64,000 nucleotides of DNA from a virus: the IMG/VR virus record IMGVR_UViG_3300027743_000001, positions 1 to 64,000 of that record. The stretch is one strand, 5' to 3'. Made by a program: the position numbers and the translations under genes. Position 1 is the first letter of the stretch. Every line of letters begins with the position of its first letter. Of the stretch, positions 10,970 through 39,481 are shown in pieces. A model generated the notes under the pieces. That model was not told where the DNA came from. It ran no database searches and was given only the letters and a program-made list of their open reading frames with translations.

Positions 10970-10981
10970 GCTTCTCCCTCC

Positions 10982-22322: not shown

Positions 22323-22357
22323 CAGAGCCCTCCCGCCATCGCCATCTGATTGCCGAC

Positions 22358-24010
22358 CTACATGTTGGTGCTGCCGCCGCGCCGTGAAGTCCTACCCGTG
22401 CTAGGGGTAGTCGGCGTGGTGGTGCTGCCTGCATTAGGCGGTACCTCATCGTTGCTAGGTCCGGGGTTGACCGGACCAGTGGTCGGCTCCGGAGAAGGCT
22501 CCAGAGACATGCCGCCGCCCGAAGGAGTCGTAGGAGTCGGGGCAGGCCCCTCTCCGCCGAACCCACCAGGCTCCGGACCTTCAGGAGGTGGTGGAGTAGT
22601 TCCGCCGCCGCCTTCCGCCGGTGGAGCCCCAGCCGCCGTGACCGCGTGCGCACCAGGCGCCCACGCCGTGCCGCTCCAGTTGAACGCGAACCCGCCGATG
22701 GTGAACTGTTCACCAGTGGACCAAGCAGCTGCGTTAGCCGCCGCATAGCCCAGCGTTGCCAGCTTGTCAGCGTTCGTCTGGTCAGACGCCGTGATCGTCG
22801 GCTCAGCGGCGAAGCTGTCCAGCGGGTTGACCGCAGACTTGATCGGGCCGGCGTAGGGAACCCAAGCCGCCCCGCTCCACGTGACTTCCTCTGACCCCAG
22901 CTGTGCATACTGATCTGCCGCCCACGCCGTGGTGGGGTTGGCCGTCACAGCCGGAACCATAGCGAGCAACTCCGCCAGCGTGTCCGGGATAGCGGAGTTC
23001 GTCGGTACCGGCGTAGCCGGCCGACCTGCCGTGAATGAGGTGAGCACTGCCGGAGCCCGGCCCTGCACCCACGAATCCCCATCCCAGTACGCTTCCGAAC
23101 CGTCTCCCAGGATCACGAACTGCCCAGGAGTCCACGCCGTGGTATTGCCAAGAGCGCCGAGCCCCTGCAAGGCTGCCAGGTCTTCCGGCCGCGTCGCGTT
23201 CGAAGGCGACAACGTAGCCGGAGAGCCGGCAACGATGGTCACGAGCGGGATACCCAGGTTGGCAAAGCAACCCTTCAGCCCGACTGGAGCAGTAGTGGCC
23301 CGCGCGTACGCATACACGCGGTCCGCGTACTGCGGAAACTTCCAGTCGAATGAGCCGGGAGGCGGAGGTGGAGCACCGCCGCCGGAGGTAACCCCGGCCA
23401 GGTCCAGGTTCGGGCCAGAGCCGTAGTTCAGGTTCCCCGTGCCCAGGCCGGCGAAGACAGTAGCCAGGTTCCCATTCTCGACTACCCGGTCCCCGTCAAG
23501 CCGGAACTTGACCGAAGGGAACAAGTAATCCCAATAGGGACACTGGTTGGCTGACTTGCCGTTGACGACAGCCGTAGCCCAGACCCGAATAGCCACCCCG
23601 TTGGGGTTGGCTTCCACGCCCGTCTTCTCGGCTGCGTAGCCGACTGCATGGATGTCATCTGGGAGAGCACCGGGGAGCGGACAAAGCGCCCCCGTACTGT
23701 CCACAATGACCTCGCCACCAACCAGCAGCTGAGTGAGCACCGGGTCCGGGTCACACAGCTCAAGGCCGATGGTCGTGTTCTTCAGCGTGTCAGGAAGCTT
23801 GTACGTGACGCAGATTTCACCAGCAGCATTGATGATCTCGATCTCTTCACCCTCAACGTAAACGGGGGTGAACGTGAAGGAGATATAGCCGCCGGTCAAG
23901 TAGTTGTCACACGGGCTTCCCGCAAGGGGTGCACCGTCCGGCCCGAGCCGAGTCGCCATAAGCGCCACGCCACGGACTGAAGCGGCATTGTCCTGTGTGT
24001 ACTTAGCCAC
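22358..24010 (-). CDS. major tail protein with C-terminal repeats
   Basis: EGEEIEIINAAGEICV...LELCDPDP tail-tube pattern; three AWxxxQ...WxGxxW repeats; Pro/Gly/Thr tail. Confidence 0.88.
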   Translation of the reverse strand: MAKYTQDNAASVRGVALMATRLGPDGAPLAGSPCDNYLTGGYISFTFTPVYVEGEEIEIINAAGEICVTYKLPDTLKNTTIGLELCDPDPVLTQLLVGGEVIVDSTGALCPLPGALPDDIHAVGYAAEKTGVEANPNGVAIRVWATAVVNGKSANQCPYWDYLFPSVKFRLDGDRVVENGNLATVFAGLGTGNLNYGSGPNLDLAGVTSGGGAPPPPPGSFDWKFPQYADRVYAYARATTAPVGLKGCFANLGIPLVTIVAGSPATLSPSNATRPEDLAALQGLGALGNTTAWTPGQFVILGDGSEAYWDGDSWVQGRAPAVLTSFTAGRPATPVPTNSAIPDTLAELLAMVPAVTANPTTAWAADQYAQLGSEEVTWSGAAWVPYAGPIKSAVNPLDSFAAEPTITASDQTNADKLATLGYAAANAAAWSTGEQFTIGGFAFNWSGTAWAPGAHAVTAAGAPPAEGGGGTTPPPPEGPEPGGFGGEGPAPTPTTPSGGGMSLEPSPEPTTGPVNPGPSNDEVPPNAGSTTTPTTPSTGRTSRRGGSTNM

Positions 24011-24052
24011 TTCACCTCTCCTTGTCTCGTTACCGTCTCTGACTGCCGGCCG

Positions 24053-25705
24053 TTACGGTGTAGCCGCACCGGCGCAGCAGTAGCCCGTGTCGTCGAGCGG
24101 AGAAGTGATCCACAGCGGCAGTCCGCCGACGTTGGCCACGCTCTCGAAGATCTCGGAGAACTGCATATAGTCGTTCGTCCGGACCAACGTGGAGTCCCGG
24201 ATGAGACCGAGGTCCAGCGTGCCGCCGTCGAGCAGGAGCAGGGAGCCCTCAGGGTAGAGCGCCCACTGAACCTGGCTCGGGAAGTCCGGCAGAGGCACCG
24301 GAGTCGCCAGCGCGGCCTCATCGAAGGGCAGGTAGAACCCGCCCGGAGGAGCCGTAGTGGCGCCGCCGCCCGCGTCTGCCGCCGGCAGGGATGTGGTCGG
24401 CTGCCACGTGTCCAGGGACCACGTCACCGTGATGCCAAGATCGTTGAGGATACTGTTCAGCTCAGCCTCGGACATCGAGTAGTTGTCGGAGAGCCGGGCC
24501 GTCGAGTTCTCAGCCGTGACACTGTCGGAGACCATCAGGTCGCGGAACCACGACGGGATGATCGCGTGCAGCCGCTCGTTGTCAACCAGCCGGTTGACAT
24601 CCCTCAGGTAGGCCGCCGCCCGGTGGACCGTGCGGATGAAGTCCCGGATCGCGCCGTACGCGACGGCCGGGCCGGTCACCAGCTTGGAGAGCGACTTGAT
24701 CTGCGCCAGGAGCACCGACTCGGCGAACCGTGCCTGCTGAACCCGGAGCATCTGGGTATTGGCCGTGACCATCTCCGGGAAGATCCGGGACTGGAGCACG
24801 CCGAACTTGATACACATCGTGATGGCCTGAACCTCGGCTGTCTGCTCCGGCGGGCAGTCCGCGCGGATACAAACCTTCCAGGTCAACTCGTCGGCCGGGT
24901 CAACGGCTTCGTCGTCATCACAGGTCCAGACAGCGACGCCGCCGGTCACGTCCGAGAGCTTAGGCCCTTGGAAGTACCGGATGCCGCCACGGTCTGCCTG
25001 AAAACCGGGGAGCGCGCCGCGCACCGGCCGGTCCGTGTCGCCGATCGTGTAGAGGTCGTAGCGGGTCTCCAGCGGAGCGCAGCAGCCGCCGGCCGCCACG
25101 ATCGCCTTGGTGCTGGTCACTGCCTCGATCTTGGCCTTGTTGCCTTCCAGGTCACCGTTGTAGAGAATGCGGTCTTCCGGCGCCTTCGTTTTGATGGACG
25201 CCACGACCACCTTCTCGCCAGTGCCACCGCTCAGGCCGTGGAGGGTCCGAATGCGCTTGGTGAAAGCGTCAGCGAAGTCCTTCAGGGTCGGAATTACGGT
25301 TCCTGCCGAGTAGCCCGGGATGTCAGCACCAGCGACCACCGTACTGGTGGGCGCCACGGTAACCGGCTCGCGGTCACGCGGAACGGTCAGAGCGCCGCCT
25401 GTCTGCTGCTCCACCGGGTCACCTTCCTTTACGTCGTTGTTCTCCTCCACAGCTGCCACCAGCTGCGGTTCCACTACTGCCGCCGGCATAGCCTCGGCCG
25501 GAGCTTCTTCCTCGCCGCCACCCTCAGCACGCTTAGCCAGCTCAGCCGCCACCTGGTCCAGCGCCTCAGCGAGGCTGGCCATGAGCGCGTCGTCGGCTGC
25601 CTGGTCGGCCGCGTCAAACGCGGCTGTGATCTCGGACTGAAGATTGGTCAAGTCTTCGTCAGTGAGCGTGGCAAGAGCTGCGAGCTTCTCCGCGAACTCG
25701 TCCAT
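24053..25705 (-). CDS. major capsid protein with N-terminal scaffold-like region
   Basis: Acidic helical N-terminus; AIVAAGGCCAPLETRYD, LPGFQADRGGIRY, DGGTLDLGLIRDSTLVRTNDY. Confidence 0.93.
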   Translation of the reverse strand: MDEFAEKLAALATLTDEDLTNLQSEITAAFDAADQAADDALMASLAEALDQVAAELAKRAEGGGEEEAPAEAMPAAVVEPQLVAAVEENNDVKEGDPVEQQTGGALTVPRDREPVTVAPTSTVVAGADIPGYSAGTVIPTLKDFADAFTKRIRTLHGLSGGTGEKVVVASIKTKAPEDRILYNGDLEGNKAKIEAVTSTKAIVAAGGCCAPLETRYDLYTIGDTDRPVRGALPGFQADRGGIRYFQGPKLSDVTGGVAVWTCDDDEAVDPADELTWKVCIRADCPPEQTAEVQAITMCIKFGVLQSRIFPEMVTANTQMLRVQQARFAESVLLAQIKSLSKLVTGPAVAYGAIRDFIRTVHRAAAYLRDVNRLVDNERLHAIIPSWFRDLMVSDSVTAENSTARLSDNYSMSEAELNSILNDLGITVTWSLDTWQPTTSLPAADAGGGATTAPPGGFYLPFDEAALATPVPLPDFPSQVQWALYPEGSLLLLDGGTLDLGLIRDSTLVRTNDYMQFSEIFESVANVGGLPLWITSPLDDTGYCCAGAATP

Positions 25706-25854
25706 GAGTCTGTTCCCTCCTTATTCGGGCACACCTCAGTTGTTAGCTGAAGAGTTACGCCCGGTTGGGTAGGAGTTGTCACTACCCGGATGGAGGGTCA
25801 CTCGGTTCCCACAGAGTATGACACAGCGATCTGGGTCACAAGCCGGGCTGACAG

Positions 25855-25883
25855 TTGACAGGGGTTGACCAGCTGTGTATAGT
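25855..25883 (+). promoter_or_regulatory. SigA-type promoter with tandem GTTGAC
   Basis: TTGACA-N17-TATAGT; GGGGTTGACC in the spacer. Confidence 0.85.
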
Positions 25884-25924
25884 TGCCCTTGTACCGCCCA
25901 CCACCACCACCCAAAGGAGTCCCC

Positions 25925-26233
25925 ATGAGTGAGAACAAGATCAACCTTGAGCCCATCCCAACCCAGCTTGACACCAAGCCCCGTCACCGGATCTATTTCC
26001 GCCTCTTCTCGGCGGCCCAGCGTCTCGTCGGAGTGCCCGGCATGTCCCCGGCCCAGCGGGTAGAGAACCTTGAGGTCATCCGTGAGAGCCTGCTGGATGC
26101 TCTCGCGATGCTGGAGATCGACATCTCCACTCGTAAGGCTCTGGTTGACATTGAGGCGAACTTCCACCAGACGGCCGAGGAGCCCGAGCCGGCCCAGCCC
26201 GCCGAGGAGGCGGAGACCGAGCCAGACTTCTGA
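25925..26233 (+). CDS. hypothetical protein (opposite strand within head module)
   Basis: AAGGAG SD, own promoter, followed by hairpin at about 26246-26277. Confidence 0.75.
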   Translation: MSENKINLEPIPTQLDTKPRHRIYFRLFSAAQRLVGVPGMSPAQRVENLEVIRESLLDALAMLEIDISTRKALVDIEANFHQTAEEPEPAQPAEEAETEPDF

Positions 26234-26300
26234 TCCACACGCAGGAGCGCCCACCGACTTAGGTCTGGTGGGCGCTTCGCTTATTGCCTAATGTACCCCC

Positions 26301-26615
26301 ATGAGGCTGAAGTTGCTCCTTGTAGCGCTGCCGCTCTTGTTGCTGGCCAACTGCGCACTGGCTACCCCCCTATCTTCGTGGGGATTCAGGATGCCGAACT
26401 TGGTTGGCACGAACCTGTCAAGTGCTAAGGGTCGGTTGACAGCCCTCGGATTTCCCGCCGAGAACATCGTGGTGTTTGCCGGGGACTCAGCCCCCGACCC
26501 CGTCATGGAATCCCGGTGGGTTGTGGAATCACAAGAACCATCGCCGGGGACGATGGTTCCTGTGTGTGAGGACTGCTATGTGAGCTTGGTGGTCATCCCT
26601 TTGCTGCCCGAATAG
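26301..26615 (+). CDS. secreted PASTA-domain protein
   Basis: Signal peptide, then MPNLVGTNLSSAKGRLTALGF...WVVESQEPSPGTMVP...VSLVV. Confidence 0.75.
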   Translation: MRLKLLLVALPLLLLANCALATPLSSWGFRMPNLVGTNLSSAKGRLTALGFPAENIVVFAGDSAPDPVMESRWVVESQEPSPGTMVPVCEDCYVSLVVIPLLPE

Positions 26616-29007
26616 CGTTCACCCGCTCGCGGATCTGCTTCATCCGCTGCTGCCGGGCCGCCTCGCGTGCCCGGGTGACTGCCTCTGACGCCGGCTGCTC
26701 CACGGGTGCCGCCGGCTCCGGCGTGGCTTCCTCCTGCTCGGCCTCCGGCTCCGGGACTGCCTCCACCTCAACCTCATCCGTCTCCGGGAGGGGCTCCGGC
26801 TCCGGGTCGGTCACCACGATCTCCTCAACCGCGTCTTCCTCCGGGGTGAAGAGTGCCGTCTCCACCGCGTTCAGCCTCTCCAGCACAGCTGCGTCGGCTG
26901 TCATGCTCGCCTTGAGCACAGCGAGGGACCGCGCGCCGGCCGCCACCAGTGCAGTTACCGCGCCACTAGCGACCCTGGCCCGAGCGATCGGGAAGCCCGG
27001 CACGTTGACCTGGCAAACCGCGACCAGCTCCAGCGCGCCGTTGATCGGCCGCCAGTCCCCCGATGGAGCCGACGCGCGGAGCGTGCGTACCTGCTCAGGC
27101 TTGATGTCCGGCCGGAGCGCGCCGGCCACCCAGATTCCGAACTTGTCCTCGCCCACGACCACGTCAGCCACTGCACTGGCCGTGTTGTCGTAGTGCGCCA
27201 CCGCGTGCCCAGCGTCCGCGTTCAGCGGTGCGTGGCCGCCGGCCAGTGTCAACTGGCCCACGTTCACGTCCTTGCCGCTGGCCGTGCGCAGGGTGCCAGT
27301 CATGAAGTAGCTGTAGTTCGAGCGGGAGCGCGGCGGTTTGACGCTGCCGGGGAGCCCGATGTGCTGCTGGTGCCAGTCCGCGATGTGGCCGAACACCTGC
27401 CCGTCATCCGTGTGAGTGAGCGGTGTCAACCGGTCCAGCTTCTGATCCTGAAGCCACTCGTCGGGCGGAGCCACGGGGAAGCCGCCGGCCAGGACGGCGC
27501 GCACCAGGCCCACGTCGTCCAGTGCTTCTGTGTAAATGCCGTCCTTCAGCATGTTGACGTTCCTTCCTTGAGTGTCCATCCACGCTCCGGCCACCAGAGC
27601 CGCGAGCACAGCCTGCTCGGTTGACATGGCCGCTGAGGCGTGCACATGCCCACGTCCCCGGCCCCGGCCAGGCCACTTCCCTAGAACCCTCTTGTGGAGG
27701 TTCGCGCAGTAGCCCTCAGCCCGGCCAGGCATGTATTTGTTGAGCTGACGCACGCAGCGCTTGAAGTCCCCCTTGACGCCCCACTTGATCTTGGCAGCGC
27801 CCTTCCCGGATGCCCAGTAGCGCCGGAGCTTCTCGGCCCGTGGGTCCGGGGATACAGCAGCCGTGACTCCGTCGATCTGCGTGATCACGTCAGCCAGCGA
27901 CGGATCATCCAGCTCCACGAGCGGGGGAGGGTTGACGCCGGCCAGCTCCGCCAGTAGCTCGGGGTCATCCACCCATGCCTTCTGGTCATAACGCTGAACT
28001 TTCGGCCCCGGCATGAGCCGGACCAGCGCGATCACAGCGCCGGGATCCAGATCATCGACCACTGCGAACGGGGTCCACTCCTCTTCCTCGGCCTCCGTGT
28101 CAACCGCTGCCGTGAGGGGGGAAACGATGGTGTCGTCCTTGAACGACTTGGCCGCCTTCTTATACAGACCGTTGACCCGAGACTTGATCTTGTTCTGGTC
28201 AGCCTGCGGGATCTTGACTCCGCCCCGGGCGCCGGAGAGAGCACCGGCCACCGCCGCCAAAGCGGAGTACACGATCTTGAGGTCCCCGTTGATCACGTCT
28301 GCGAACGGGAGTTTCCAGGCCGCCTGCGTCTGTGGGTCCGCGTCAGGGTCTCGGTAGAGGAATCCCTGCCCGAGCTTGCTCGTGTCGTAGGTGCCGTCCG
28401 CCTTGCGAGCCCGGGAGAACAGCCGGTTGGTGGCCGCGTCTCCGTCCCACTTCCGGCTGCGGTCCGCAAACGGCAGATCCGTGGAGCCGCTCACCGAGGA
28501 CAGGAGAGCTAGGTCCGGGTGCCCTGAGTGCAGAAATGCCGAGGGAGCCAGCCATGCTTGCGGGGTGTAGCACCTCAGAGCCAGGCCCTCCGCCCCCGCC
28601 AGGAGAGCATCAGCCAGGTCCACAGCGTCTGGCATGGTGAGCAGGATCAGGGGGTCAGAGCCCTCCCAGGGATCCCAGGCGCCGGCCGCCGTCAGCACTT
28701 CGTAGGAAGCTTCCCCCACTCGCCGGACCAGCTGCCGATAGAGCATGTCGTCGGCCGGGTCCGCCGTGGCGTAGAACCCGACGTCCTCACAGTCCGAGTC
28801 GGGGCAGGAGAGTGTGTCCCGCGCCGGCCGGCTCAATGCCGAAAGGGCGGACTCCAGAGTGTCGTCCGCCCACTTGCCACTTTCACCGCCAGACGCAGAG
28901 AGCGCCAGCAGCTGCCAGGCTCCCACTTCGTGCTGGCTAACTTCCTCACGTAGGCGCCGAGGAACCGGGTAAGCCTTGTTATATCCACACATGACTAGTG
29001 ATGTCAT
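26593..29007 (-). CDS. multidomain capsid maturation (prohead) protease
   Basis: C-terminal VFGHIADW...HYDNTASAVADV...GIWVAGALRP...SGDWR...VNVPGFP; extra domains (KLPFADVING; LRRYWASGKGAAKIKWG...CANLH). Confidence 0.85.
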   Translation of the reverse strand: MTSLVMCGYNKAYPVPRRLREEVSQHEVGAWQLLALSASGGESGKWADDTLESALSALSRPARDTLSCPDSDCEDVGFYATADPADDMLYRQLVRRVGEASYEVLTAAGAWDPWEGSDPLILLTMPDAVDLADALLAGAEGLALRCYTPQAWLAPSAFLHSGHPDLALLSSVSGSTDLPFADRSRKWDGDAATNRLFSRARKADGTYDTSKLGQGFLYRDPDADPQTQAAWKLPFADVINGDLKIVYSALAAVAGALSGARGGVKIPQADQNKIKSRVNGLYKKAAKSFKDDTIVSPLTAAVDTEAEEEEWTPFAVVDDLDPGAVIALVRLMPGPKVQRYDQKAWVDDPELLAELAGVNPPPLVELDDPSLADVITQIDGVTAAVSPDPRAEKLRRYWASGKGAAKIKWGVKGDFKRCVRQLNKYMPGRAEGYCANLHKRVLGKWPGRGRGRGHVHASAAMSTEQAVLAALVAGAWMDTQGRNVNMLKDGIYTEALDDVGLVRAVLAGGFPVAPPDEWLQDQKLDRLTPLTHTDDGQVFGHIADWHQQHIGLPGSVKPPRSRSNYSYFMTGTLRTASGKDVNVGQLTLAGGHAPLNADAGHAVAHYDNTASAVADVVVGEDKFGIWVAGALRPDIKPEQVRTLRASAPSGDWRPINGALELVAVCQVNVPGFPIARARVASGAVTALVAAGARSLAVLKASMTADAAVLERLNAVETALFTPEEDAVEEIVVTDPEPEPLPETDEVEVEAVPEPEAEQEEATPEPAAPVEQPASEAVTRAREAARQQRMKQIRERVNAIRAAKG

Positions 29008-29035
29008 GATGTTGCCTCCCAGTGCCTCTCTGGCC

Positions 29036-29269
29036 CTAGACTTTCGTGTTGTCCTTGATCCACTCGTTCACGGTAGCTTCGTCGGTCTCTTTCCATCCTG
29101 GCTCATCGTGGATCTCCAGGAACAGCCGATCTTGATCTTCCTGCCACTTCCCATCTTTCCAGAACTCGGTCTCCGTGGTTTTCGGCCAGCCCCAGCGAGC
29201 CACTAACAGCGGCTCTCCGGTCTGTTTGCTCTTGTACATGAACCATGCTGTCGGTTCCATCACCATCAT
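29036..29269 (-). CDS. putative immunity protein (IapK-like) for the upstream toxin
   Basis: 77 aa, overlaps the toxin stop codon; aromatic/acidic pattern LVARW...EFWKDGKWQED...ETDEATVNEWI. Confidence 0.65.
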   Translation of the reverse strand: MMVMEPTAWFMYKSKQTGEPLLVARWGWPKTTETEFWKDGKWQEDQDRLFLEIHDEPGWKETDEATVNEWIKDNTKV

Positions 29270-31290
29270 CCTCTCATCACTGCTGCTACATTTCCTACAT
29301 CGGCAGGACGCTCCAAGGGTTTAGAGATTTCGAACATCTGCCGCTCCAGCTCCTCCCAGGGTGGGCTGTGCTTTACCAGCTTCCGCTGCCGCTCGTAGAG
29401 CAAATGCTGCCTGTCCTTGGCCCGTTGGGACTCAGGGGTGTGGAACTGGAGTTCAAACCGATGTCCATCGGGACCGGTGATGTCGGCGTTAATGCCCTTG
29501 TAAGCGCGTCCCTCGTTATTCCAGGAGTTGCTGACATCTACGTCATAGCCCTTGGCTCTCAGCTCGTTGATCACCCGCTGAGCGTTGGCCCCGAAGTTCT
29601 CCGGGTCATAATGCAGAGTATACCGCAAGGCATCACCGATCTCACCAGCGGCCTGCTCAGGCCCGCCGGGCAGCTTGGCCCCCTTGCTTGCGATCTTCCG
29701 GACTAGGCTGCCCTCAGTCTTCAGCCTGAACTCGCCGCCGTAGAACTGTCCATTGTCTCCGATGATCTTGCTCGGGTCATAGTCGAGACCATCAACACCG
29801 CTGATCTCACTAAGCAGGCGACTAACTACCGGTTCATCGGCCTCTACGCCAGCCAGGATCTTCCTAGCCTCGTCTTGACTCTCTGCTCCTCTTGTCACAA
29901 GCGAACGACCTGTTTCCTGCGCCCCAGTGTTCACGGGTTTTTTGTTCCTCAAGATCGCAATAGCTCGTGGAGCGTCTGAAAGTTTGTCTACGATCTGCTG
30001 TGTAGGGATTATCTCGGGGAACCCGGCTGCCGGGTCGGCTGCTTTGGGATTGCCTAGGGCATCCACGTATTCGAGCTTGGCCCCGTTCGGGGTTAGGTCA
30101 ACCACCTGTGCCCGACGCCGGGCGGCGCTGCGATCACCAGGGAGTGAGTCCGGATCGGAGAACACGTTCACCATGCCGAACTTCTCGATGAACTTCCCAT
30201 CCTTGCCACGGGGGTGCAGCCAATCTCTCCAGTCGATGGCCGCGATGATGGCCGGGTGATCCAGCAGCCTGTGCTCCCGCGCCCGCATGATGAAGGATCC
30301 GAAGAACCCCAGCGGCTCCGTGCCGTTGACGCACAGCTGCACGTATTGCTTGGCAGCAGCCACGACAGCTGACGCTGCCGTGGCTTCCTCAAAAGGGAGG
30401 ATGACCCCGTCATCAGCAGTAGGGAACTCCGGGAGCACCTCCGGGGCCACCTTACCCAGCTGCCACTCCTGCGGGATCTTGTCTAGCGCGCCGAGAGCAT
30501 GAGCCCGTTTGACCACGTACCACCGGCTATCAGGGTGCATGATGGCGTAGCGCACGGCTATCGGGAGATCTTCCGCCCGGTTGACAGAAGGGATGCTGTT
30601 ACCTGCTGCCACGACTGCGGTCTCCTGTTCAAGCGGTGCCGGAACCTCTCCCGGCATCTCGATGGTCTCTACCTCGCCCTGCGTCTTGGTGGGCAGGTCT
30701 GCCACGCTGACCGTTGTGCCGCTGGCATCGCCCGCGTCCCACACCGCCAGGGCGGACGGGGCAACCTGCACCAGTGACATGTCATCCAGAGCCGTGTTGC
30801 CCTCAGGGAGCAGGATCCACTCCCCGTCATACCGCACGTAGGCTCCCATGCCCGTCTCGATAATCAGTGTGACTACTGTGTTGTCGGGTGCGACCACAGC
30901 GTCCAGTTGGAGTGCCAACATTCCTCCCCTCATTATGTGAGCCTCAACCACTGCGAGCGGCTGCGGTACACCGGCGTCTGGTGCCATGGTCACTGCGTCA
31001 TATGGATCCAGCGGTCGGATCCGTAGTGTCTCATCCGCTGCCTCAGGGTTTGAGAAGATGGCCGTCGCCGTCAGGACACCGCCGCCCATGTCAACCGGCT
31101 CGGAGATAAAGGTGCCCCGGGTGTTGTCCTCATCTTCATCCCACACCAGCATGAGACCGTTGTCGCCGGTCTGAATCTCGACGTTGGCCCCGTAGCGGAT
31201 CGAGGTCGTGTCGTACCGCGCCGAGGTGACCGGATCAGTCCTGTGGATGGTCACCTCGATGATGGCCGGATTAGGGACTCTCATGATCAC
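29266..31290 (-). CDS. head-module protein with C-terminal RelA/SpoT-like (Apk2-type) nucleotide pyrophosphokinase domain
   Basis: FRLKTEGSLVRKI, GDALRYT, NSWNNEGRAYKGIN, FELQFHTPES, HLLYERQR. Confidence 0.88.
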   Translation of the reverse strand: MIMRVPNPAIIEVTIHRTDPVTSARYDTTSIRYGANVEIQTGDNGLMLVWDEDEDNTRGTFISEPVDMGGGVLTATAIFSNPEAADETLRIRPLDPYDAVTMAPDAGVPQPLAVVEAHIMRGGMLALQLDAVVAPDNTVVTLIIETGMGAYVRYDGEWILLPEGNTALDDMSLVQVAPSALAVWDAGDASGTTVSVADLPTKTQGEVETIEMPGEVPAPLEQETAVVAAGNSIPSVNRAEDLPIAVRYAIMHPDSRWYVVKRAHALGALDKIPQEWQLGKVAPEVLPEFPTADDGVILPFEEATAASAVVAAAKQYVQLCVNGTEPLGFFGSFIMRAREHRLLDHPAIIAAIDWRDWLHPRGKDGKFIEKFGMVNVFSDPDSLPGDRSAARRRAQVVDLTPNGAKLEYVDALGNPKAADPAAGFPEIIPTQQIVDKLSDAPRAIAILRNKKPVNTGAQETGRSLVTRGAESQDEARKILAGVEADEPVVSRLLSEISGVDGLDYDPSKIIGDNGQFYGGEFRLKTEGSLVRKIASKGAKLPGGPEQAAGEIGDALRYTLHYDPENFGANAQRVINELRAKGYDVDVSNSWNNEGRAYKGINADITGPDGHRFELQFHTPESQRAKDRQHLLYERQRKLVKHSPPWEELERQMFEISKPLERPADVGNVAAVMRG

Positions 31291-34200
31291 ACCTCATAGC
31301 TTTCCGGCAGATCGAGCAAGTTGCGGAGGTTCGGAGGCATGTACACGGGAGGCAGATCGGATGGCCGCATGGTCTTGGCCTTGGCTATGGTGACGATGTA
31401 CCGCTCTAGCGGAACCCCGTTGATAGAGACAATCCCCTTGGCCTTCAGCTTCGCGATGGCCGAGTCGACTTCTTTCTGGCTCGGAGCCGCGATCATGCTG
31501 GCCTGCTCCGGAGCGATGCCACCGCTAATGTAGTAGTCCTTGATGTTCTCCCATACCGTAAGGCTCCGCATGATGTTGCTGCCATTGTCAGGATTCCCGT
31601 ACACATCCTCCAAGGAACCGCGCATGTCACCGATGCGACCGTAGAGAGCCTCAGGGTGGTGGTAAATCATGAGTCCACCGGAGATATATACAGCCTGGTC
31701 GTTGTGGTCCGGGAGGTAGTTGTACTTCTTGGCTGAGGCATAGGCGCCATGTCCGGCGTACACGCTGGAATCGTGGACTGCGGACTGCCCGAGTCCCTTA
31801 CCAGTGGGAGCGTCCACGGCGCCCTGAAGCCGTTTGGTCATGCTGTTGACGTTGCCATACAGTGCTGTAGACGCAATGACATCCGCGTTGTTGCGCTTCG
31901 TGCCTTTGACCACAAGGTTCATCTTGCTCTTAGCCTTCATGGCAGCGATGGCTCGCTCAGACCAGAAGTAGGAAACCTTACCGATCGACTCATCAACGCC
32001 CACTCGAACGTCCTGCCAGCCCAGATCAGTGATACCCATCCACTCTCCGGCCTTCTTGAACATCTGCTCATCCGACATGCCCTGTGTGTTGTCAGCGTTG
32101 GCCTGGTCGAAGCTGACCATAGTGGACAGGAAGACCCGCGCCTGCTGCTTGGCCGAAGACTGCGTCATGGGGGAGTAACCACCCAGGCCCAGCTCAGCCA
32201 TGGCCGCCGAAAGATCCCCATCGGTTGCACCCTCAGGAAGGAAGATGTTGGTCATTCCAAACCGGGAGTCATTCTTGTACTCGCTGGCCGGGTCGATCAC
32301 CTCTATGACAACCCCGTTGCTAGCTACCAGCCGCACATTGCGGGACGTGCCGAAGTCAGGAAATGCACTCTTCGCCAACGGGACACCCTGTCCCGGCTCC
32401 ACATACAAGGTCCCGTCCGCCTGCATGCCAGACAGGCCGCCGTCTTGGGCGACGGTCCATCCCCTGGCCTGTGCCGACTGGCTCAATGAGAACTGGCCGG
32501 TCTGAAGTACCTTGATCTTGGTGGGGTCCCACGCGGTCACGGTGTAGGTGTGACCAGCAGACCACGGGGTAGTGACCGTGGACCCATCAGACAGGCTCTT
32601 GAAGGTCACTATCTTGCCGCCGGTAGCCGCGTCGTCCTGCACGTCCACCACTTCGTAGTTCGGCGGGTTGACGCCAGAGTTGTCCGGCCGCCACTGGCTC
32701 TTGAGTTCCGGCTGGCTGCTGCTTGAAGGCCGGATAGATACCCTCTCGCCTACCGCGATGCTCTCCGTAGGCTTCTTGGTGCGTACCCAGTCGCCCTGCT
32801 CCTGTGTGTCACCACTAGCCAGGTTGCTGGCAAAGGTCGCACGCTGCTCCTTGGAGAGAGCGAAGATCACCCGGTTGTACTTCTTACCGGACGGCCCGAT
32901 CGCGCGGGTCGTGAACATCTCCCCACCCCGGATGCCGGTGGAGTTGGTGACGATCGCCCGCTGCTTGCCGTCCTGCAAGGTCTTGCCCAGCGCCTCGGCC
33001 GGCGTGTCAACCGCCAGCGCCATTCCCTTAGGAACCTCCAACGGGGCCAGCGGCGCCTGGTAAGGGCCGTACTCTTCCGTGTCGAGCCGGAGCGCCGTGA
33101 CCAGCCGTGTCGACTTCTCTCCGCTGCTGGTGAGGACCACCGCGCTCTGCTTGTTCTTGCTGAGGCTGATGATCTTGCCGTGCATCGGACCCTTGCCGGT
33201 GACGTGCATGCCCGCCGTAGGGATGTAGCCGTCCTTGGTGAGCGGGCCGCCCCACGCCAGCACCACGTCCTCACTAGGTGCGCCCGGCAGGCTGGGCTTT
33301 GGCTCGGCAACGGGAGGCTTAGCCGCGTAGACGGCATAGTTAGACGGCATCTTGTTGGTGAGGAACATGGAGTGCTTGCCTTGGTCAACTGCTACGGCGC
33401 CAGGCTCATGCCCCACAGAGTAGTGGTGGAAATCTATAAACTCACCATCTATCTGCACCATCTGCATGTATTCATTGGGCTTGTGGGGGTCCCCATAGGA
33501 CACATAAATCCAGTCCCCAGGCTTCAGGTCCATACCCTTGAAGTCGGAGGCTAGGGTGATCTCCATGGTGCTCGGGTGGGGTGCCCCGATCGCGTCGTTG
33601 GCACCAGAGGCTGCCGTCTGAGGGAAGGCGCTCGGAGGAGCAACTGACAGGTCAACCTTCTGCATGCCGGAGAAGTTGCTGCCATAGACTGCGAACTCAG
33701 CTTTCTCTAGCTTCTTGGTTTCGTAGTCCTGGTAGAGCTGGTACATGAGCGGGTCGTCGGGGTCCGCGTTCGGGTCCGACACATAGACGTTGTACAGGGT
33801 CTTGTAGAGCTGCTCACCCGGCTGAAGCTCATACGTCTTGCCGTTGAACTCAATCCCAGTGACTGCCTCGACATCAACTATCTGCGGGCTGGCACTGACC
33901 GGACCAGGCCCGGAGAGGTCCGGGGGAGTCAGTGCGTCGTACTCTCCCAGCGTTCCCTGCGCGACAGACATCTTGGCATCACCGATGCCGCCCTGCGCGA
34001 GGAAAGCCAGCACAGTGGACTCGTCATGGCCAACAGTGGTGTTGATAGTTCCGTCAGCGGAAATCGCGTTGTACTTGCCATCGGGCTGCTTGACCAGGTA
34101 CTGATCCGGGATCGTCGGAGTCTGGATCTTGATGACGATGTCATCCGGCTGAGTCGTCAAGCCGTTGAACGTGCCGCCCGTAGGTCCGACATTCGGGTCG

Positions 34201-37200
34201 GGGTTGAACAGCTTGTTGAACATCCCTTGAACGGAGGGGGCTTCAGCATCAGAAGCAGCCTGCGTGGGGAAGGGGGGCGGGTCACCCTCCGCCTGGTGGA
34301 CCAACGTCTTCTTGTCGTTCGGCACCAGCCCCATGACGTGATGGGTGATGGAGGCGCCGCCCAGCTGGCCGTCATCCTTGATCGGCCACCAGGATGCACC
34401 GGGAGCGGACTGGATGTAGTAGGTGTTTGAGTCAGATATGTAGACAACAGACTCCCAGCTGCTTACCTCATAGAAGCTGTTGATCTTATCGCCAGTGGCA
34501 ACCTGATCCGGCACAGCAGGGGCGATGTCAACCACGTCAACCTGGTTGCTGAACGGGTCATGGTAGAGGTTGACCTGGTAAGGGCTGCCGTCTGAGTTGT
34601 ACTTGTTGACGGTCGTGCTTACATCAATGGAGTCATCACCGTCTATGTGGTACCAGTTGGAGCTGGCCGGAGAGGCGATGTAATACTCATTGCCGATCTT
34701 GGCAACCTGGTTTCCGGACTGAACGGATACCTTGTACCCGTTCGGGAGAGTCAACTCCTCAGTGCCGGTCCCCTGGTGGAAGTTCTTCAGGCCCATGGGA
34801 CCCTCTTGGTCGCCATCACCGACCCACGTGCCGCCCGTTCCGGCAGCGTTCACTGTCCACATCTGCCAGCCGGAAGTGGTGTGCCGACGCCAGAAGGTGC
34901 CCGACCCAGAGACAAAGATCGGATACTTCGCGTCGTCGTACTTGAGCGCCTGGTTGAGTGCCCAGCCGGCCGCGTCCTGGCCCTGGTTGCCGGTCAGCTT
35001 GTGGTCGTTTGTGGTACCCGGCCCGGCCTTCAGCTTCGTGGCCATATCATTAGCCGCGTCGATCTGGCCCTGCGTCAACTCAGCATCTATGTAGTCGGAC
35101 CCCTTACGGGTCACCCGGATACTCACGTTCGGGCCGAAGTCCTGTTTGGACAGGAGCTGAGGTGAAACTGTGCCAGCGTCGACTACTACAGCTACCTTGT
35201 CATCTCCCAGAGGCAGGTTGTTCTCCACCACGACGAATAGGTACTGGCCAGCTTCAACCTCATCTCCCGGTTCCAGGTGGGGGATGATCTGGTGAGCCGG
35301 AAGATAGGCACCGTCCTCATCGAAGATGCTGGTTTCGGTCTTCTCCACGAGCGGAGCATCTGCGTCGTACGTACCAACGGTGCCATCTGAGAAGGCCAGG
35401 TAAACAAGACTAGACCCTTCAGGGGCATCCACAAAGGTGACCACTACGACGTCATCGCCGTTGTGCACCGACTCGCCCGGCTTCAGTCCCTGCGCGGGGA
35501 CCATCGGGCCGCCGTGCGGACCCGTCGCCCCCGCAGACTCCGGCAAACCAGAAGACTCCGGGATGACCGTGGGGGTCGTGTCAACCGTGAAGTCATTCAG
35601 GACAGTTTTCAGTACGGTGAATGGAGTTTCGTTCTTGTCTATCATCCGCACCGTCGTGTCGGTGATAGCGATGATCTCGTAGCTGTTGTCGGGGCTACTG
35701 ATCGGGCTGACCTTGTGGCCGACCTTCAGCACGCCACTGTCGATCCAGGCCGCCAGCGTCTTCGCCTCATCCACCTGGCTGACGGCCGTGACCGCCGGAG
35801 CCATGGGGGAAGGTGGCTCCGGCACCGATACCGGCTCAGGCTCAGGCTCCGGAGTCGTGTCAACCGTCGCTCCGGCTTCCTCCGTGATGGTCACCGTGCT
35901 GACTGACTTACGCTTGCGGACGCCGGACGTGTTCTCGATGAACACGAACTTGCCGTCCGGGGAGATCATCACGATCTTGCCCTGGTGGCCGTCCTTGGCC
36001 AACGCCGTCATGCCGAGCTTAGGAACCTTGCCGTCCCCCGTCATCGGGGTCTTGGCGCCCACCACGTTGGCCGCCGGGGTCTTGCCAGGCTGCGTCAGGG
36101 TTGACGCCGCCTTCATCAGCTCCTTGCCGTCTTCGTCCTTGACGACAGCGCTGTAGCCCTTCTTCTTGACGTAGGTGTAGGTCTTCCCGTCCTTCTTGGA
36201 GACCACCTTCGCACCGGGTCCGGCCTCGGTACCGTCACCCAGAAGCATGCCCTTGTCATCGCTAACGACAGACTTAGCCTGCGCCTCGGCCGCCGCCTTG
36301 ATGTCTTCCTTGACCTGCGTCTCTACGGTGGCAGCCATGCCGGTCTTCTGCGGCGGTTCCGATATCTCCACCTCAGGCTCCGGGACGGGCACCGGCTCCA
36401 GCAGCTGGACGATCTCCTCCACCTCGGCCTCGGCAGCCTCGGGGAGGTTCGGCTTCTGCGCTTCCGGCGGAGGCGGATCCCAGCGCTCCACGATGTAGGG
36501 GCCGGATCCCAGGGCGTAGGTGTCCAGGATTACCGATGTGGTGTTTCCCTTGTCCCGAAGCATGACCTTCTTTTTGGCGGGGGAAACTCCCATCACCTCA
36601 TAGGTGTGGCCGTTCGGGTCGGTGATCGTGTCCCCGCGCTCGAACTTGATGGTGTGAAGATCAGCAGCATCCAGAGCGGCGCCATGGTGTGGCCGTTCCA
36701 GGTTGGTCAACGGGCTCTGGTAGTGGACATCCGTCTTAGAGCCGTACTTGTCCTTCAAGGCCCATCGCTGGTCTTGCAGCTCGTCCGGCTCCATCAGGCT
36801 GCCGTCAGTCAGGTCAACGCCGATCCTGATAGTTCCCGATCCGATCCGGACGTAGTCGCCAGGTGACGCCATATCCAGAGCTTGTCCGAGGTTCATCGGG
36901 AACCACTTGCGGGACAGGCCGTTGTTCTCGGCTACGTCCGGGACGTTTATCGGCTTGGAGGCTTCCGGAAGCGGGAGTCCATAGTGGTCAGCAATGTACC
37001 TACGGCGCGACTTGAGCGTGTCAGCCAGGGACTGAGGTAGTCCACGCTCAGAAACCAGGTCATCAATTTCTTCCGGAGAGATAGCCAGAACCCGGACGGC
37101 GCCATCCAGCTCATCCTCCTTAGGCATCACGTTCTCGCCGAAGATGGCAGCCTTCTTACCGGACCGCATGGTCTCCAGCTCCATCACCTTGTTACCGAAG

Positions 37201-39479
37201 GCGCCGCCCTTAGGTTCGCCTTGAGCCCGGTAGGTGAGAGCCCCGCCGTTGTCGATCCGCCAGGACGTGCCTTCCTTGTCGACGAACACGTTGTCCCAAC
37301 CGAGGCCGAAGACATCCCAGTTCGAGAGCCAAGCGTCAACGACAAAGTTCTTGCGGATCTGTGTCAACCACTCCTTGTCCTTCAGCTTCTCATTGATCGT
37401 CTGGCTGAGTTCCTCGCCCTCCACGATCTCGGAGTAGATGTTCTTTCCGTCGTAGTCGACGTTCGGCACCGGGACGCCAGCCGCTGAGTACAGATCATTG
37501 GCCAGCTCCTCCACCTTGCCGTGATCTTGGCTCTTGGGCTTCTTGACGTAGAACTTCTTGGCCGGGCCGCCGGCAGGGTCCGGGATGCTGTACATCCCGC
37601 CTTCATTGCTGCCGCCCTGCCCGCCGATCTTCGTAGACCCAGCGTCATCCTTGGTGAGGTGGGCAATCTTCTTTGGCGCGCGGTAGACCTGGTTGGGGCG
37701 GAGCGTCAGCTCCTTCTCGCCCGGGGTCGGCGTGCCAGACAGGTCGGACGGCTGAACCTTCAACTCAGCTTTGTCGTCTGACCCCTTGAGTATGTCCTTG
37801 ACCTGCCCGTACTTCCACTTGCCATTCTTCAGGAACTTGATGATCCCGAACTTGTTAATGAACCGGCCGTCCGCGCCACGCGGGTGTTCCCACGGCTCGA
37901 AGGCAGGAGCGGCCACGATCGGTTCCAGGAGGGGTGTCACTTCGATGCTGTTGAACAGGCCCAGCTTCTCCCAGCCGGTACCGTCGTCAGCCAGGGAGGC
38001 GTACATGACGTTGTTGCCGTACTCGTCGTCAACCGTGATATAGGTCTTCTCGTCTTCCCAGCCGGGGCCATGTGTGACCTTCATGGAGACGGTGTTGGGG
38101 TCGTCGTGCGCTCCGGTAAAAGCGAAATCGAACTTGCTCTCCCCGACCCAGAGAGAGATCGTGTCAAAGGATACTGTGGACGGAAGATGGCTCGGGTCTG
38201 TGACCTCGATCAGGAAGTCGTTGCCGTAGCCCAGAGTGATGTGGGGTATCCACTCCGGGTGCTGCTCAACCGTGCTCATCTGGTAGGCAACAACCGGGTC
38301 TGCAACGACAGCATCCCTCACACACGACAGTGCCACGTCCTCAAGCAGGAGCACCGCCGCGTCGTGGTCCCCCAGCCGGCCCCGCCCGTTCACCTCGGTC
38401 TCGATCGGGGTGCACTGCTTGGCCAGGTCGCCGAGACACTTGAGCACGTGATCCAGTTCGTCGGTTGACATGTCAGCGCTGAGGTAAGCCAGGGTCACGT
38501 GCGGGTCGTCGTCCACTACGAGCGCATTGACCGGGTCGTCAGCTGAGGTACGGCAAACGATCACCGCCGTAGGCAGCTCCTCCACCGGCTCCATCTCGTC
38601 CAGGATCAGGTCCGCGAGCAGTGCCTGAGGGAAGTTGTGCCCGACCGGCGGCCCGTAGTCGTACCCCATCGTGTAGTCAAAGACGAACGGGGAGAGGTCG
38701 GCCGATCCGGTGATCGCGTTCAGCTCCTTGGTGCGCCGCTTCACCTCATTAGATGCTCTCTTGACACGGGCTTTAGAGATCCTGACTTCTAGTTCCTGCA
38801 TCTTCCTGCGGGCGCGTAGAGTGCGCAGCTCTTTGACCCCCTTGGGGGTCAATCCAGGTTGTCCGCTAGCGGTGTCAGACGCCTTCTCAAGCTCCTTGAT
38901 CCGGGCATCATGTTGTCCAACCTCTGCTTGCTGCTTAACCAGCGACGCTTTCTGGATCTCCAGTGCGTCTTGCGCCCGTTCAATGCTGAGCTTGGCCTTT
39001 GCCTTGGAAGCCTTCAGTCTCTTCGCCTTGTTTGCTGCCGAGGTTCCGGAACCCTTGGAGGAGCCACCCCCGCCGCCGCCGCCGGACTTCTTCTTGACTC
39101 CGCCCTCATCCTTTGCCTTGGAGAGATCTTGGTTGAAGTATTTGGCCAGCACGTTGAGGGTCTGCACGTTGAGCGTGCCCGTGGGCTTCAGGCCCAGCCC
39201 AGTCTGATAGTCCTTGAGCGCCCGTGCGGTCTCCGGGCCGAAGTAGCCAGTGGCTGGCAGGTTGTAGCCGGCTCGCCGGAGCGCTTCCTGCAGCCGGGTG
39301 ACGGCCGGCCCTTGTGCTCCGACCCCTAGGCCACCATCTTTTGTGCTGCCCTGACCGGACGTGCTGAACTTGCCGCCCGTGTCCCGCTTGACCTGTGACT
39401 CCTCGAAAGCGCGTAGCCGCTGGTTCGGGTCCTTGGCCCGACTCGGCCGCTCCCGCCTCTGTTGGCCTGGTTGCGTCAC
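31287..39479 (-). CDS. giant (2730 aa) multidomain head-module protein: PG-binding, 2H phosphoesterase, HipA/PI3K-like kinase, SH3/KOW-like repeats, possible ART-like C terminus
   Basis: PGBD GPAVTRLQEALRRAGY...GYFGPETARALKDYQ; 2H motifs PHVTL and PHITL; kinase GGSNEGG...FYVK...EELANDLY...DAWLSNWDV...DN...IDNGG. Lies directly downstream of portal. Confidence 0.85.
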   Translation of the reverse strand: MTQPGQQRRERPSRAKDPNQRLRAFEESQVKRDTGGKFSTSGQGSTKDGGLGVGAQGPAVTRLQEALRRAGYNLPATGYFGPETARALKDYQTGLGLKPTGTLNVQTLNVLAKYFNQDLSKAKDEGGVKKKSGGGGGGGSSKGSGTSAANKAKRLKASKAKAKLSIERAQDALEIQKASLVKQQAEVGQHDARIKELEKASDTASGQPGLTPKGVKELRTLRARRKMQELEVRISKARVKRASNEVKRRTKELNAITGSADLSPFVFDYTMGYDYGPPVGHNFPQALLADLILDEMEPVEELPTAVIVCRTSADDPVNALVVDDDPHVTLAYLSADMSTDELDHVLKCLGDLAKQCTPIETEVNGRGRLGDHDAAVLLLEDVALSCVRDAVVADPVVAYQMSTVEQHPEWIPHITLGYGNDFLIEVTDPSHLPSTVSFDTISLWVGESKFDFAFTGAHDDPNTVSMKVTHGPGWEDEKTYITVDDEYGNNVMYASLADDGTGWEKLGLFNSIEVTPLLEPIVAAPAFEPWEHPRGADGRFINKFGIIKFLKNGKWKYGQVKDILKGSDDKAELKVQPSDLSGTPTPGEKELTLRPNQVYRAPKKIAHLTKDDAGSTKIGGQGGSNEGGMYSIPDPAGGPAKKFYVKKPKSQDHGKVEELANDLYSAAGVPVPNVDYDGKNIYSEIVEGEELSQTINEKLKDKEWLTQIRKNFVVDAWLSNWDVFGLGWDNVFVDKEGTSWRIDNGGALTYRAQGEPKGGAFGNKVMELETMRSGKKAAIFGENVMPKEDELDGAVRVLAISPEEIDDLVSERGLPQSLADTLKSRRRYIADHYGLPLPEASKPINVPDVAENNGLSRKWFPMNLGQALDMASPGDYVRIGSGTIRIGVDLTDGSLMEPDELQDQRWALKDKYGSKTDVHYQSPLTNLERPHHGAALDAADLHTIKFERGDTITDPNGHTYEVMGVSPAKKKVMLRDKGNTTSVILDTYALGSGPYIVERWDPPPPEAQKPNLPEAAEAEVEEIVQLLEPVPVPEPEVEISEPPQKTGMAATVETQVKEDIKAAAEAQAKSVVSDDKGMLLGDGTEAGPGAKVVSKKDGKTYTYVKKKGYSAVVKDEDGKELMKAASTLTQPGKTPAANVVGAKTPMTGDGKVPKLGMTALAKDGHQGKIVMISPDGKFVFIENTSGVRKRKSVSTVTITEEAGATVDTTPEPEPEPVSVPEPPSPMAPAVTAVSQVDEAKTLAAWIDSGVLKVGHKVSPISSPDNSYEIIAITDTTVRMIDKNETPFTVLKTVLNDFTVDTTPTVIPESSGLPESAGATGPHGGPMVPAQGLKPGESVHNGDDVVVVTFVDAPEGSSLVYLAFSDGTVGTYDADAPLVEKTETSIFDEDGAYLPAHQIIPHLEPGDEVEAGQYLFVVVENNLPLGDDKVAVVVDAGTVSPQLLSKQDFGPNVSIRVTRKGSDYIDAELTQGQIDAANDMATKLKAGPGTTNDHKLTGNQGQDAAGWALNQALKYDDAKYPIFVSGSGTFWRRHTTSGWQMWTVNAAGTGGTWVGDGDQEGPMGLKNFHQGTGTEELTLPNGYKVSVQSGNQVAKIGNEYYIASPASSNWYHIDGDDSIDVSTTVNKYNSDGSPYQVNLYHDPFSNQVDVVDIAPAVPDQVATGDKINSFYEVSSWESVVYISDSNTYYIQSAPGASWWPIKDDGQLGGASITHHVMGLVPNDKKTLVHQAEGDPPPFPTQAASDAEAPSVQGMFNKLFNPDPNVGPTGGTFNGLTTQPDDIVIKIQTPTIPDQYLVKQPDGKYNAISADGTINTTVGHDESTVLAFLAQGGIGDAKMSVAQGTLGEYDALTPPDLSGPGPVSASPQIVDVEAVTGIEFNGKTYELQPGEQLYKTLYNVYVSDPNADPDDPLMYQLYQDYETKKLEKAEFAVYGSNFSGMQKVDLSVAPPSAFPQTAASGANDAIGAPHPSTMEITLASDFKGMDLKPGDWIYVSYGDPHKPNEYMQMVQIDGEFIDFHHYSVGHEPGAVAVDQGKHSMFLTNKMPSNYAVYAAKPPVAEPKPSLPGAPSEDVVLAWGGPLTKDGYIPTAGMHVTGKGPMHGKIISLSKNKQSAVVLTSSGEKSTRLVTALRLDTEEYGPYQAPLAPLEVPKGMALAVDTPAEALGKTLQDGKQRAIVTNSTGIRGGEMFTTRAIGPSGKKYNRVIFALSKEQRATFASNLASGDTQEQGDWVRTKKPTESIAVGERVSIRPSSSSQPELKSQWRPDNSGVNPPNYEVVDVQDDAATGGKIVTFKSLSDGSTVTTPWSAGHTYTVTAWDPTKIKVLQTGQFSLSQSAQARGWTVAQDGGLSGMQADGTLYVEPGQGVPLAKSAFPDFGTSRNVRLVASNGVVIEVIDPASEYKNDSRFGMTNIFLPEGATDGDLSAAMAELGLGGYSPMTQSSAKQQARVFLSTMVSFDQANADNTQGMSDEQMFKKAGEWMGITDLGWQDVRVGVDESIGKVSYFWSERAIAAMKAKSKMNLVVKGTKRNNADVIASTALYGNVNSMTKRLQGAVDAPTGKGLGQSAVHDSSVYAGHGAYASAKKYNYLPDHNDQAVYISGGLMIYHHPEALYGRIGDMRGSLEDVYGNPDNGSNIMRSLTVWENIKDYYISGGIAPEQASMIAAPSQKEVDSAIAKLKAKGIVSINGVPLERYIVTIAKAKTMRPSDLPPVYMPPNLRNLLDLPESYEV

Positions 39480-39481
39480 GG

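Follow-up and report, generated by a model that had tools for sequence, protein, structure and literature searches.

An Apk2-like alarmone synthetase domain and a candidate immunity gene in an exchangeable cassette of a phage head operon

We analysed a window of 64,000 nucleotides (nt), the first 64 kb of the complete 86,542-bp IMG/VR record IMGVR_UViG_3300027743_000001, which has direct terminal repeats and derives from an uncultured soil phage. The subject of the analysis is a gene encoding a 674-amino acid (aa) protein with a predicted alarmone synthetase domain at its C-terminus, together with a small open reading frame (ORF) of 77 codons directly behind it, its candidate immunity gene. 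Both lie on the minus strand in a siphovirus-type late operon whose genes abut in the order portal, 2730-aa protein, toxin gene, 77-aa ORF, protease and major head protein, followed by the major tail protein and the tape measure protein. In the ORF list the toxin gene spans 29266..31290, starting from a GTG at 31290. The start is probably the ATG at 31284, which yields 672 aa, since a GAGG is located 8 nt upstream and a database entry (P0001) has this length. The small ORF spans 29036..29269. An earlier note on this DNA, made from the letters alone, had described it as overlapping the toxin gene, and the two ORFs do have an ATGA in common if the first ATG (29269) is used. The real start is, however, probably 29260, 5 nt past the toxin stop, because a GAGAGG box precedes the fourth codon (an ATG) by 9 nt and the corresponding database entry is 74 aa long.

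The C-terminal tip of the toxin protein, residues 491-668 (29287..29820, minus strand), was assigned to the Apk/EAS type of RelA-SpoT synthetases by phmmer, by profile search and by its identity to a known phage enzyme. All of the alarmone synthetase motifs quoted in the earlier note were found in the translation: RLKT at 522, SLVRK at 528, DALRYT at 553, YKGIN at 597, FELQFHT at 612 and HLLYE at 629. A phmmer search against PDB sequences gave a single match, SaEAS (8vx3), with an E-value of 3.9e-15 over residues 514-667. The note had proposed a comparison with the synthetase subfamilies, and a profile built from 10 relatives matched SaEAS at 1.9e-40 and Tas1/Apk1 at 6.5e-6; beyond these two, no RelA-SpoT enzyme in the PDB was found at E ≤ 1. 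With the MuF-Apk2 protein of Streptococcus (S. pneumoniae) phage K13 the tip shares 37% identity across 181 columns (residues 491-668). Together with the SaEAS matches, this identity upholds the description of the tip as Apk2-like. Using tblastn, the synthetase domain was detected in 128 of 50,697 phage records, all of them phages or prophages of Streptococcus, Pasteurellaceae or Ralstonia, and actinophages were absent from the 128.

Alignment of 10 sequences (27-37% identity) revealed 20 invariant positions in the tip, among them D553, R556, Y557, T558, G599, N601, E613, Q615 and H617; across 49 metagenomic proteins carrying the tip, 18 positions are invariant. The Apk syn motifs (RYT, GxN and [Y/F]H) are found at 553-558, 597-601 and 612-618 and do not vary in the 10 relatives. 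In the phmmer alignment D121, R124, N169, E182 and Q184 of SaEAS are paired with D553, R556, N601, E613 and Q615, which are thus the predicted catalytic residues of the tip, and five of the six named active-site residues of SaEAS are retained. Changing D121 to alanine is reported to abolish the activity of SaEAS (PMC12691689). Judged by its sequence, the tip (about residues 490-670) belongs with the alarmone synthetases that form the Apk1/Apk2/SaEAS clade.

The product of such an enzyme is another matter. SaEAS is reported to synthesize both (p)ppApp and (p)ppGpp and to prefer guanine acceptors, although its RYT, GxN and FH motifs are like those of Apk2 (PMC12691689). Apk2, with the same signature, makes (p)ppApp only, and swaps of the syn motifs left its specificity unchanged (PMC12226406). 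The product of the tip is therefore not readable from its motifs, and the protein could be a pyrophosphokinase with another substrate, modifying tRNA 3′ ends like toxSAS or producing only (p)ppGpp like VpEAS/AaEAS, and not (p)ppApp. We consider this somewhat unlikely. Against a tRNA substrate stand the profile search, which reached SaEAS and Tas1 only among solved RelA-SpoT enzymes, and the fact that the nearest phage relatives are (p)ppApp-making Apk2 proteins.

In agreement with the earlier note, the protein that bears the tip is not of the MuF type. Pfam found no Phage_Mu_F and no other family (E ≤ 0.01) in the 674-aa protein, whereas the K13 Apk2 protein scored 58.6 bits for Phage_Mu_F in the same test. 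Elsewhere in the genome the sole match to PF04233 was an ORF at 42709-43374, at 17.6 bits, under the cut-off. The N-terminal carrier domain, residues 1-330 (30301..31290, minus strand), is beta-rich, is conserved in eight relatives at 37-74% identity and has no Pfam or PHROG match. An AlphaFold2 model of residues 1-460 had a predicted local distance difference test score (pLDDT) of 58.8, with about 60-82 over residues 1-200. Foldseek found no match to the carrier model in the PDB at E ≤ 0.001, and in BFVD a single one, an 81-aa protein of Gordonia phage GodonK (E 4.1e-5, 74 columns). An ESM Atlas search with residues 1-330 gave scores of ≤0.77 and no clear fold match. A wide structural comparison gave only PH/EVH1-like matches, for residues 7-94, with Z scores of 5-6.4 that do not exceed the usual background, and the carrier fold was left unassigned. 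The carrier appears to be undescribed so far; the supplements of PMC12691689, which cover 1,369 candidates with their N-terminal domains, and those of PMC5512222 may hold similar sequences.

Carrier and tip are joined by a junction module, residues 330-450 (29941..30303, minus strand), which consists of the motif WLHPRGKDGKFIEKFG at about 30190-30216 and a small beta unit after it. We refer to it as the HPRG module. The genome contains a second copy, 49% identical, inside the neighbouring 2730-aa protein at residues ~500-550, with its motif at 37860-37886. When the module alone was searched against 1.84 billion representative proteins, 81 were recovered at E ≤ 1e-3, including that of the window. 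Of the other 80, 71 contain the motif and 31 have 2-9 copies of it; the consensus of 112 motifs is A-A-x-[WF]-x-[EP]-x-L-HPRG-[RK]-D-G-[KR]-F-I-E-K. Pfam identified Zeta_toxin in 25 of the 80, and also ADP-ribosyltransferase, NUDIX, 2H, kinase and nuclease domains, and four of the proteins carry the synthetase tip. A 909-aa protein from the representative library (P0037) has an HPRG motif at 308, a synthetase at 451-610 and a Zeta toxin at 683-856, all in one chain. We found no description of the module in print, and the terms 'HPR' and 'linker' are absent from the accessible text of PMC5512222.

Relatives of the tip are attached to several kinds of head protein. At the metagenomic locus L014, a 1255-aa ortholog (60% identity) of the 804-aa protein encoded directly downstream of our small ORF (26593..29007, minus strand; a head maturation protease or scaffold-type protein by PHROGs) is extended by an HPRG module and a synthetase. 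This fusion is followed by a homolog of the immunity candidate and then by a major head and a major tail protein from the PHROG families represented in the window. A 279-aa ORF upstream of the L014 protease was considered as an N-domain carrier and rejected on comparison. Among the 49 metagenomic proteins with the tip, Phage_Mu_F was present in 10, Phage_min_cap2 in six and Phage_portal in one. The portal fusion, found among loci L013-L092, has a full Phage_portal domain (E 2.4e-102), the toxin being joined to the portal itself.

The repeated presence of the tip on capsid-interior proteins is the best available argument, although an indirect one, that the toxin is packaged. By analogy with these fusions, packaging followed by ejection of the toxin is plausible, and we place it slightly below an even chance. 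The toxin could instead remain unpackaged and act in the producer cell, late or after lysis, in host shutdown, phage exclusion or an addiction-like function, its place in the operon giving it only its timing. An N-domain with no recognisable capsid-protein fold would be in keeping with this, and the placing of toxin and immunity gene in one late operon suits a toxin found in the cytoplasm of the producer cell. We believe this to be unlikely in view of the protease fusion in L014, the MuF, minor capsid protein 2 or portal fusions in 17 of the 49 relatives, and the junction module common to the toxin and the portal-adjacent polyvalent protein. Moreover, neither a secretion signal nor a link to lysis was seen.

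The window was compared by blastn with L003, an 86-kb IMG/VR contig that is its closest relative. Between portal and major head protein the two are collinear at 76-84% nt identity with one exception: window 29032-30004 and L003 11287-12658 are not homologous. Homology ends near residue 428, at window 30005, and is regained at 29031, which is five bases beyond the stop of the 77-aa ORF. The earlier suggestion of a swapped-in tip is thereby supported, and the swapped cassette (29032..30004, 973 bp) comprises both the toxin domain and the small ORF. In L003 a Zeta toxin is found instead: its protein P0002 shares the carrier (73-74% identity to residues 3-459) and ends in a Zeta_toxin tip. In L004-L007 the gene is split into an N-domain ORF of ~288 aa, equivalent to the carrier domain, and an HPRG-plus-Zeta ORF, while P0004 and P0005 (415 aa) have the carrier and end without a Pfam-annotated tip domain.

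The base composition of the cassette also differs from that of the genome. Its GC content of 56.1% is at the 1.2nd percentile of 1712 genome windows of the same size; the region 29270-30060, previously noticed as less GC-rich, has 57.3%, versus 62.3% for the genome. Because of its low GC, the cassette looks recently acquired. The absence of an exact octamer, which had been advanced as a further sign of exchange, does not serve that purpose. The octamer GGTTGACA occurs in 69 copies on both strands of the window, within coding sequence, compared with about two expected from shuffles (largest shuffle, 6), and none is present between 28105 and 30579. At five other places, however, the copies are spaced more widely than across this gap of 2474 bp, so it carries no weight, and we rejected it as a mark of foreign origin.

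The Zeta cassettes have a partner of their own. The C-terminal extension of the L003 protein has a homolog (31% identity, E 2e-8) in L005, a separate 104-aa ORF (12378-12692) behind the HPRG-plus-Zeta ORF, and L006 has a 109-aa ORF at the equivalent position. In L003 itself (10001-12688) the partner domain is fused in frame to the C-terminus of the toxin (P0002 residues 804-886), an odd arrangement that joins a toxin to its presumed antidote. Since this partner differs from the 77-aa ORF, each toxin type brings its own small partner. A carrier with alternative tips and their own downstream partners is a polymorphic toxin architecture, in which toxin domain and candidate immunity gene would pass jointly, as a unit, from one head-associated carrier to another.

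The product of the 77-aa ORF is acidic and rich in aromatic residues, as first described (pI 4.66, 16 D+E versus 10 K+R, 7 Trp). A search of 5.8 billion proteins gave two matches, its own entry and P0010; nothing was found in viral or metagenome contigs, and tblastn gave no significant match in phages. In contrast to these general searches, a targeted search of the ORFs behind toxin relatives yielded a family link. The 80 best metagenomic loci encoding the toxin domain were fetched and the ORF behind each was taken. About 50 of the 80 have an ORF of 45-110 aa starting at -34 to +12 nt from the toxin stop, a count of loci that are not independent because several are near-duplicates. With phmmer the 77-aa ORF matched the 85-aa ORFs behind the closest metagenomic toxins, L013 and L014, at E 3.3e-10 (36% identity to that of L014) and several others at 4e-4 to 3e-3. 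An iterated profile converged on 52 of the 63 downstream small ORFs (E < 1e-3) and on none of 63 reversed decoys. The 69-aa ORF at the IapK position of phage K13 is inside this profile, with an E-value of 7.8e-15 in the last round, although the link is remote and transitive. In the reciprocal direction, a profile made without the 77-aa ORF, P0010, L013 and L014 ranked the 77-aa ORF first among 1253 genome frames (E 0.0021). The earlier proposal of an immunity gene is thus borne out to the extent that, from profile links and homologs behind toxin relatives, the 77-aa ORF is a candidate cognate immunity protein, and the ORFs at the IapK position of Streptococcus MuF-Apk2 phages belong to its family.

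We also examined the structure predicted for the small protein. Its AlphaFold2 model (pLDDT 79) was aligned end to end with Tis1 (6ox6_B) over 65 of 76 residues, with a Z score of 4.9 and a root-mean-square deviation of 4.5, and Tis1 ranked third among 48161 chains; Foldseek gave nothing at E ≤ 0.5. A lead from the ESM Atlas was a cluster in which 11% of members have Tis1_ImmP (score 0.85). Atlas models resembling the 77-aa protein are parts of longer actinobacterial proteins, and one cluster of 226 aa, with HD_4 in 20% of its members, may on this modelling be an immunity-plus-hydrolase fusion. Prediction of a complex between the toxin domain and the 77-aa protein gave a median of 0.42 (0.51, 0.35 and 0.42), the best of three controls being 0.00, with a partner pLDDT of at least 79 and agreement between runs in at least 78% of contacts. 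In calibration the mark was attained by 58 of 80 solved complexes and by 2 of 110 mismatched pairs; 7 of the 80, and both passing mismatches, lie at 0.60 or lower, and the result was counted neither way. At one further locus, in a 4-kb viral contig (L011, 1231-3271), a 294-aa protein with the synthetase tip is followed by an overlapping MuF and ADP-ribosyltransferase fusion (Phage_Mu_F at residues 102-200, ADPrib_exo_Tox at 220-378) and no small ORF; BLASTP detected no similarity between this downstream protein and the 77-aa ORF.

Several observations speak against a synthetase toxin with a cognate antidote. Pfam finds no family, even at E ≤ 1, in the 674-aa protein or in the tip; we do not take this to mean that the domain is absent, because the characterised K13 Apk2 tip also lacks a family. 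The position of K154 of SaEAS, which binds ATP, is Asp585 in the tip and is variable across the 10-sequence alignment. For the small ORF, the reciprocal E-value is modest, BLASTP gives no match to the K13 69-aa ORF, and the Pfam model PF24154 (Tis1_ImmP) has no match at E ≤ 10 in the 77-aa ORF, P0010 or the genome; the K13 ORF is likewise unmatched by this model. The resemblance of its model to Tis1 is weak, Z scores under 8 being common between unrelated pairs. The genome yielded no Aph1-like HD_4 hydrolase. P0037 joins synthetase and Zeta toxin with no immunity gene interposed and L003 has no separate small ORF, from which it follows that a separate antidote is not always needed. Finally, were an ATP-draining enzyme to enter the cell as a lytic cycle begins, the phage itself could suffer.

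The lack of pairwise similarity to the K13 ORF and of a Pfam family, together with the weak support from complex prediction, would also be expected if the 77-aa ORF were an unrelated small head-operon protein that adjoins the toxin by chance and is no antidote. This is improbable, since the ORF is exchanged jointly with the toxin domain, has homologs behind the toxin in unrelated contigs, is linked by profile to the IapK-position family with no decoys admitted, and has Tis1 at rank 3 by fold. That the synthetase domain is an inactive relic, retained for a structural role in a head protein, as Asp585 might suggest, is very improbable given the invariance of the catalytic Asp, Arg, Asn, Glu and Gln among divergent sequences, the retention of the cognate small ORF and the apparently recent acquisition of the cassette. 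Overall, we hold the identification of the toxin and its immunity gene to be probable.

We believe that the locus encodes a three-part head-operon effector (carrier, residues 1-330; junction, 330-450; synthetase) with a cognate immunity protein, delivered as cargo, an account that as a whole we regard as rather likely. Both proteins would be made late from the head operon, and the immunity protein would block the synthetase so that ATP is not drained during DNA packaging. Carrier and junction would bring the toxin into the procapsid along with the 2730-aa protein that bears the same module, and the head protease may cut near the junction, freeing the toxin from its carrier. After ejection with the DNA into the next cell, the toxin would move pyrophosphate from ATP to the 3′-OH of adenine and/or guanine nucleotides. 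ATP and GTP would then fall and (p)ppApp and (p)ppGpp rise, with a brief arrest of host metabolism and defences as the expected outcome. We infer activity, toxicity, binding, packaging, cleavage, ejection and timing alike.

Other features of the genome provide the setting for this proposal. The late operon also contains the large terminase (43371-44894, minus strand) and the portal (39482-40981, minus strand). Between them, a 221-aa ORF (42709-43374, minus strand) has a sub-threshold Phage_Mu_F match of 17.6-17.8 bits and may be a stand-alone MuF-like protein, for which a position upstream of the portal is unusual. Directly after the portal lies the gene for the 2730-aa protein (31287..39479, minus strand), which was annotated by Pfam, motif scan and module match. 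It has PG_binding_1 at residues 56-111, a 2H phosphoesterase (2_5_RNA_ligase2) at 323-445 and a kinase-like stretch behind its HPRG motif, most of its length being without a family; it looks like a giant polyvalent head-cargo protein. The earlier note had seen no lysogeny genes in the window. The check was widened to the complete 86.5-kb genome, in which no tyrosine or serine recombinase (PF00589, PF00239) was found at E ≤ 1, other routes to lysogeny lying outside this search. A lytic lifestyle is likely because no integrase was found. The genome is high in GC (62.3%) and the host is probably an actinobacterium; a megablast search of window 22000-40000 against phages gave no match.

Phage alarmone synthetase toxins have so far been described as MuF fusions of temperate phages, with an unknown biological role. 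Here an apparently lytic phage from another host group has the same toxin-immunity pair mounted on another carrier, the exchange of its cassette with a Zeta toxin shows in the DNA of sister phages, the cassette is joined to the head protease in a related phage, and immunity proteins of distant systems are joined into one family. A phage family with alternative payloads on one carrier offers a simple system for testing packaging, injection and the benefit to a lytic phage. A bolder and tentative reading, which we would sooner doubt than accept, is that the HPRG module is a general 'plug' for interchangeable toxin-immunity cassettes on any head-interior protein of high-GC phages. The toxins would travel silenced until the head protease releases them, and would then be injected, and even a strictly lytic phage would open infection with a host-stalling alarmone burst. 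If this is true, a dedicated carrier, a protease or a giant polyvalent protein could each bear an alarmone synthetase, a Zeta kinase, an ADP-ribosyltransferase or another payload. Phage heads would then be a polymorphic-toxin delivery system on a par with the type VI and type VII secretion systems, independent of MuF and of lysogeny.

We compared the locus with known systems. The 2730-aa neighbour fits the class of polyvalent proteins described by Iyer et al. in 2017 (PMC5512222), in which effectors such as RelA/SpoT, 2H, ART and Zeta-type kinases have their genes beside those of the head and are presumed to enter the cell along with the DNA. Neither a repeated junction module of the HPRG kind nor an exchange of toxin-immunity cassettes, both seen here, is described in the accessible text of that account. 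The toxin domain is remotely related to that of the Tas1/Apk1-Tis1 pair (PDB 6OX6), in which Tas1 is a (p)ppApp synthetase effector of type VI secretion and Tis1 its immunity protein, and the small-ORF model aligns weakly with Tis1; unlike our toxin, Tas1 is delivered by a PAAR module of the type VI secretion system and not by a phage head, and the Tis1_ImmP model of Pfam has no match here. Among solved relatives the nearest in sequence is SaEAS of Streptomyces albidoflavus (PDB 8VX3). This enzyme stands alone, is exported by Sec and has no immunity gene (PMC12691689), whereas the synthetase here is the tip of a head-operon fusion accompanied by an immunity candidate. The carriers named in the accessible part of the EAS survey, MuF, LXG, Rhs/PAAR, XopAD and DUF4157, include none like ours (PMC12691689).

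Another close comparison is with the MuF-Apk2 system of phage K13. Both have a homologous tip with the RYT, GxN and [F/Y]H signatures, encoded within the region for head morphogenesis after the portal, with a small ORF of the same remote family directly behind. In place of a MuF domain, our protein has an unassigned N-domain and an HPRG module as its carrier, and no Aph1-type hydrolase gene was found. While MuF toxins have been called specific to temperate phages, no integrase was found in this phage and it is probably lytic; literature searches on ppApp with lytic phages or capsids found no synthetase of a lytic phage, the paper on phage Adele being concerned with a hydrolase. Its high-GC genome and probable actinobacterial host also set it apart from the known phage carriers of the synthetase domain. 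The locus is not a new kind of system, and it extends the known theme of phage polymorphic toxins to another carrier, junction and host group, to a probably lytic phage and to a visible cassette exchange.

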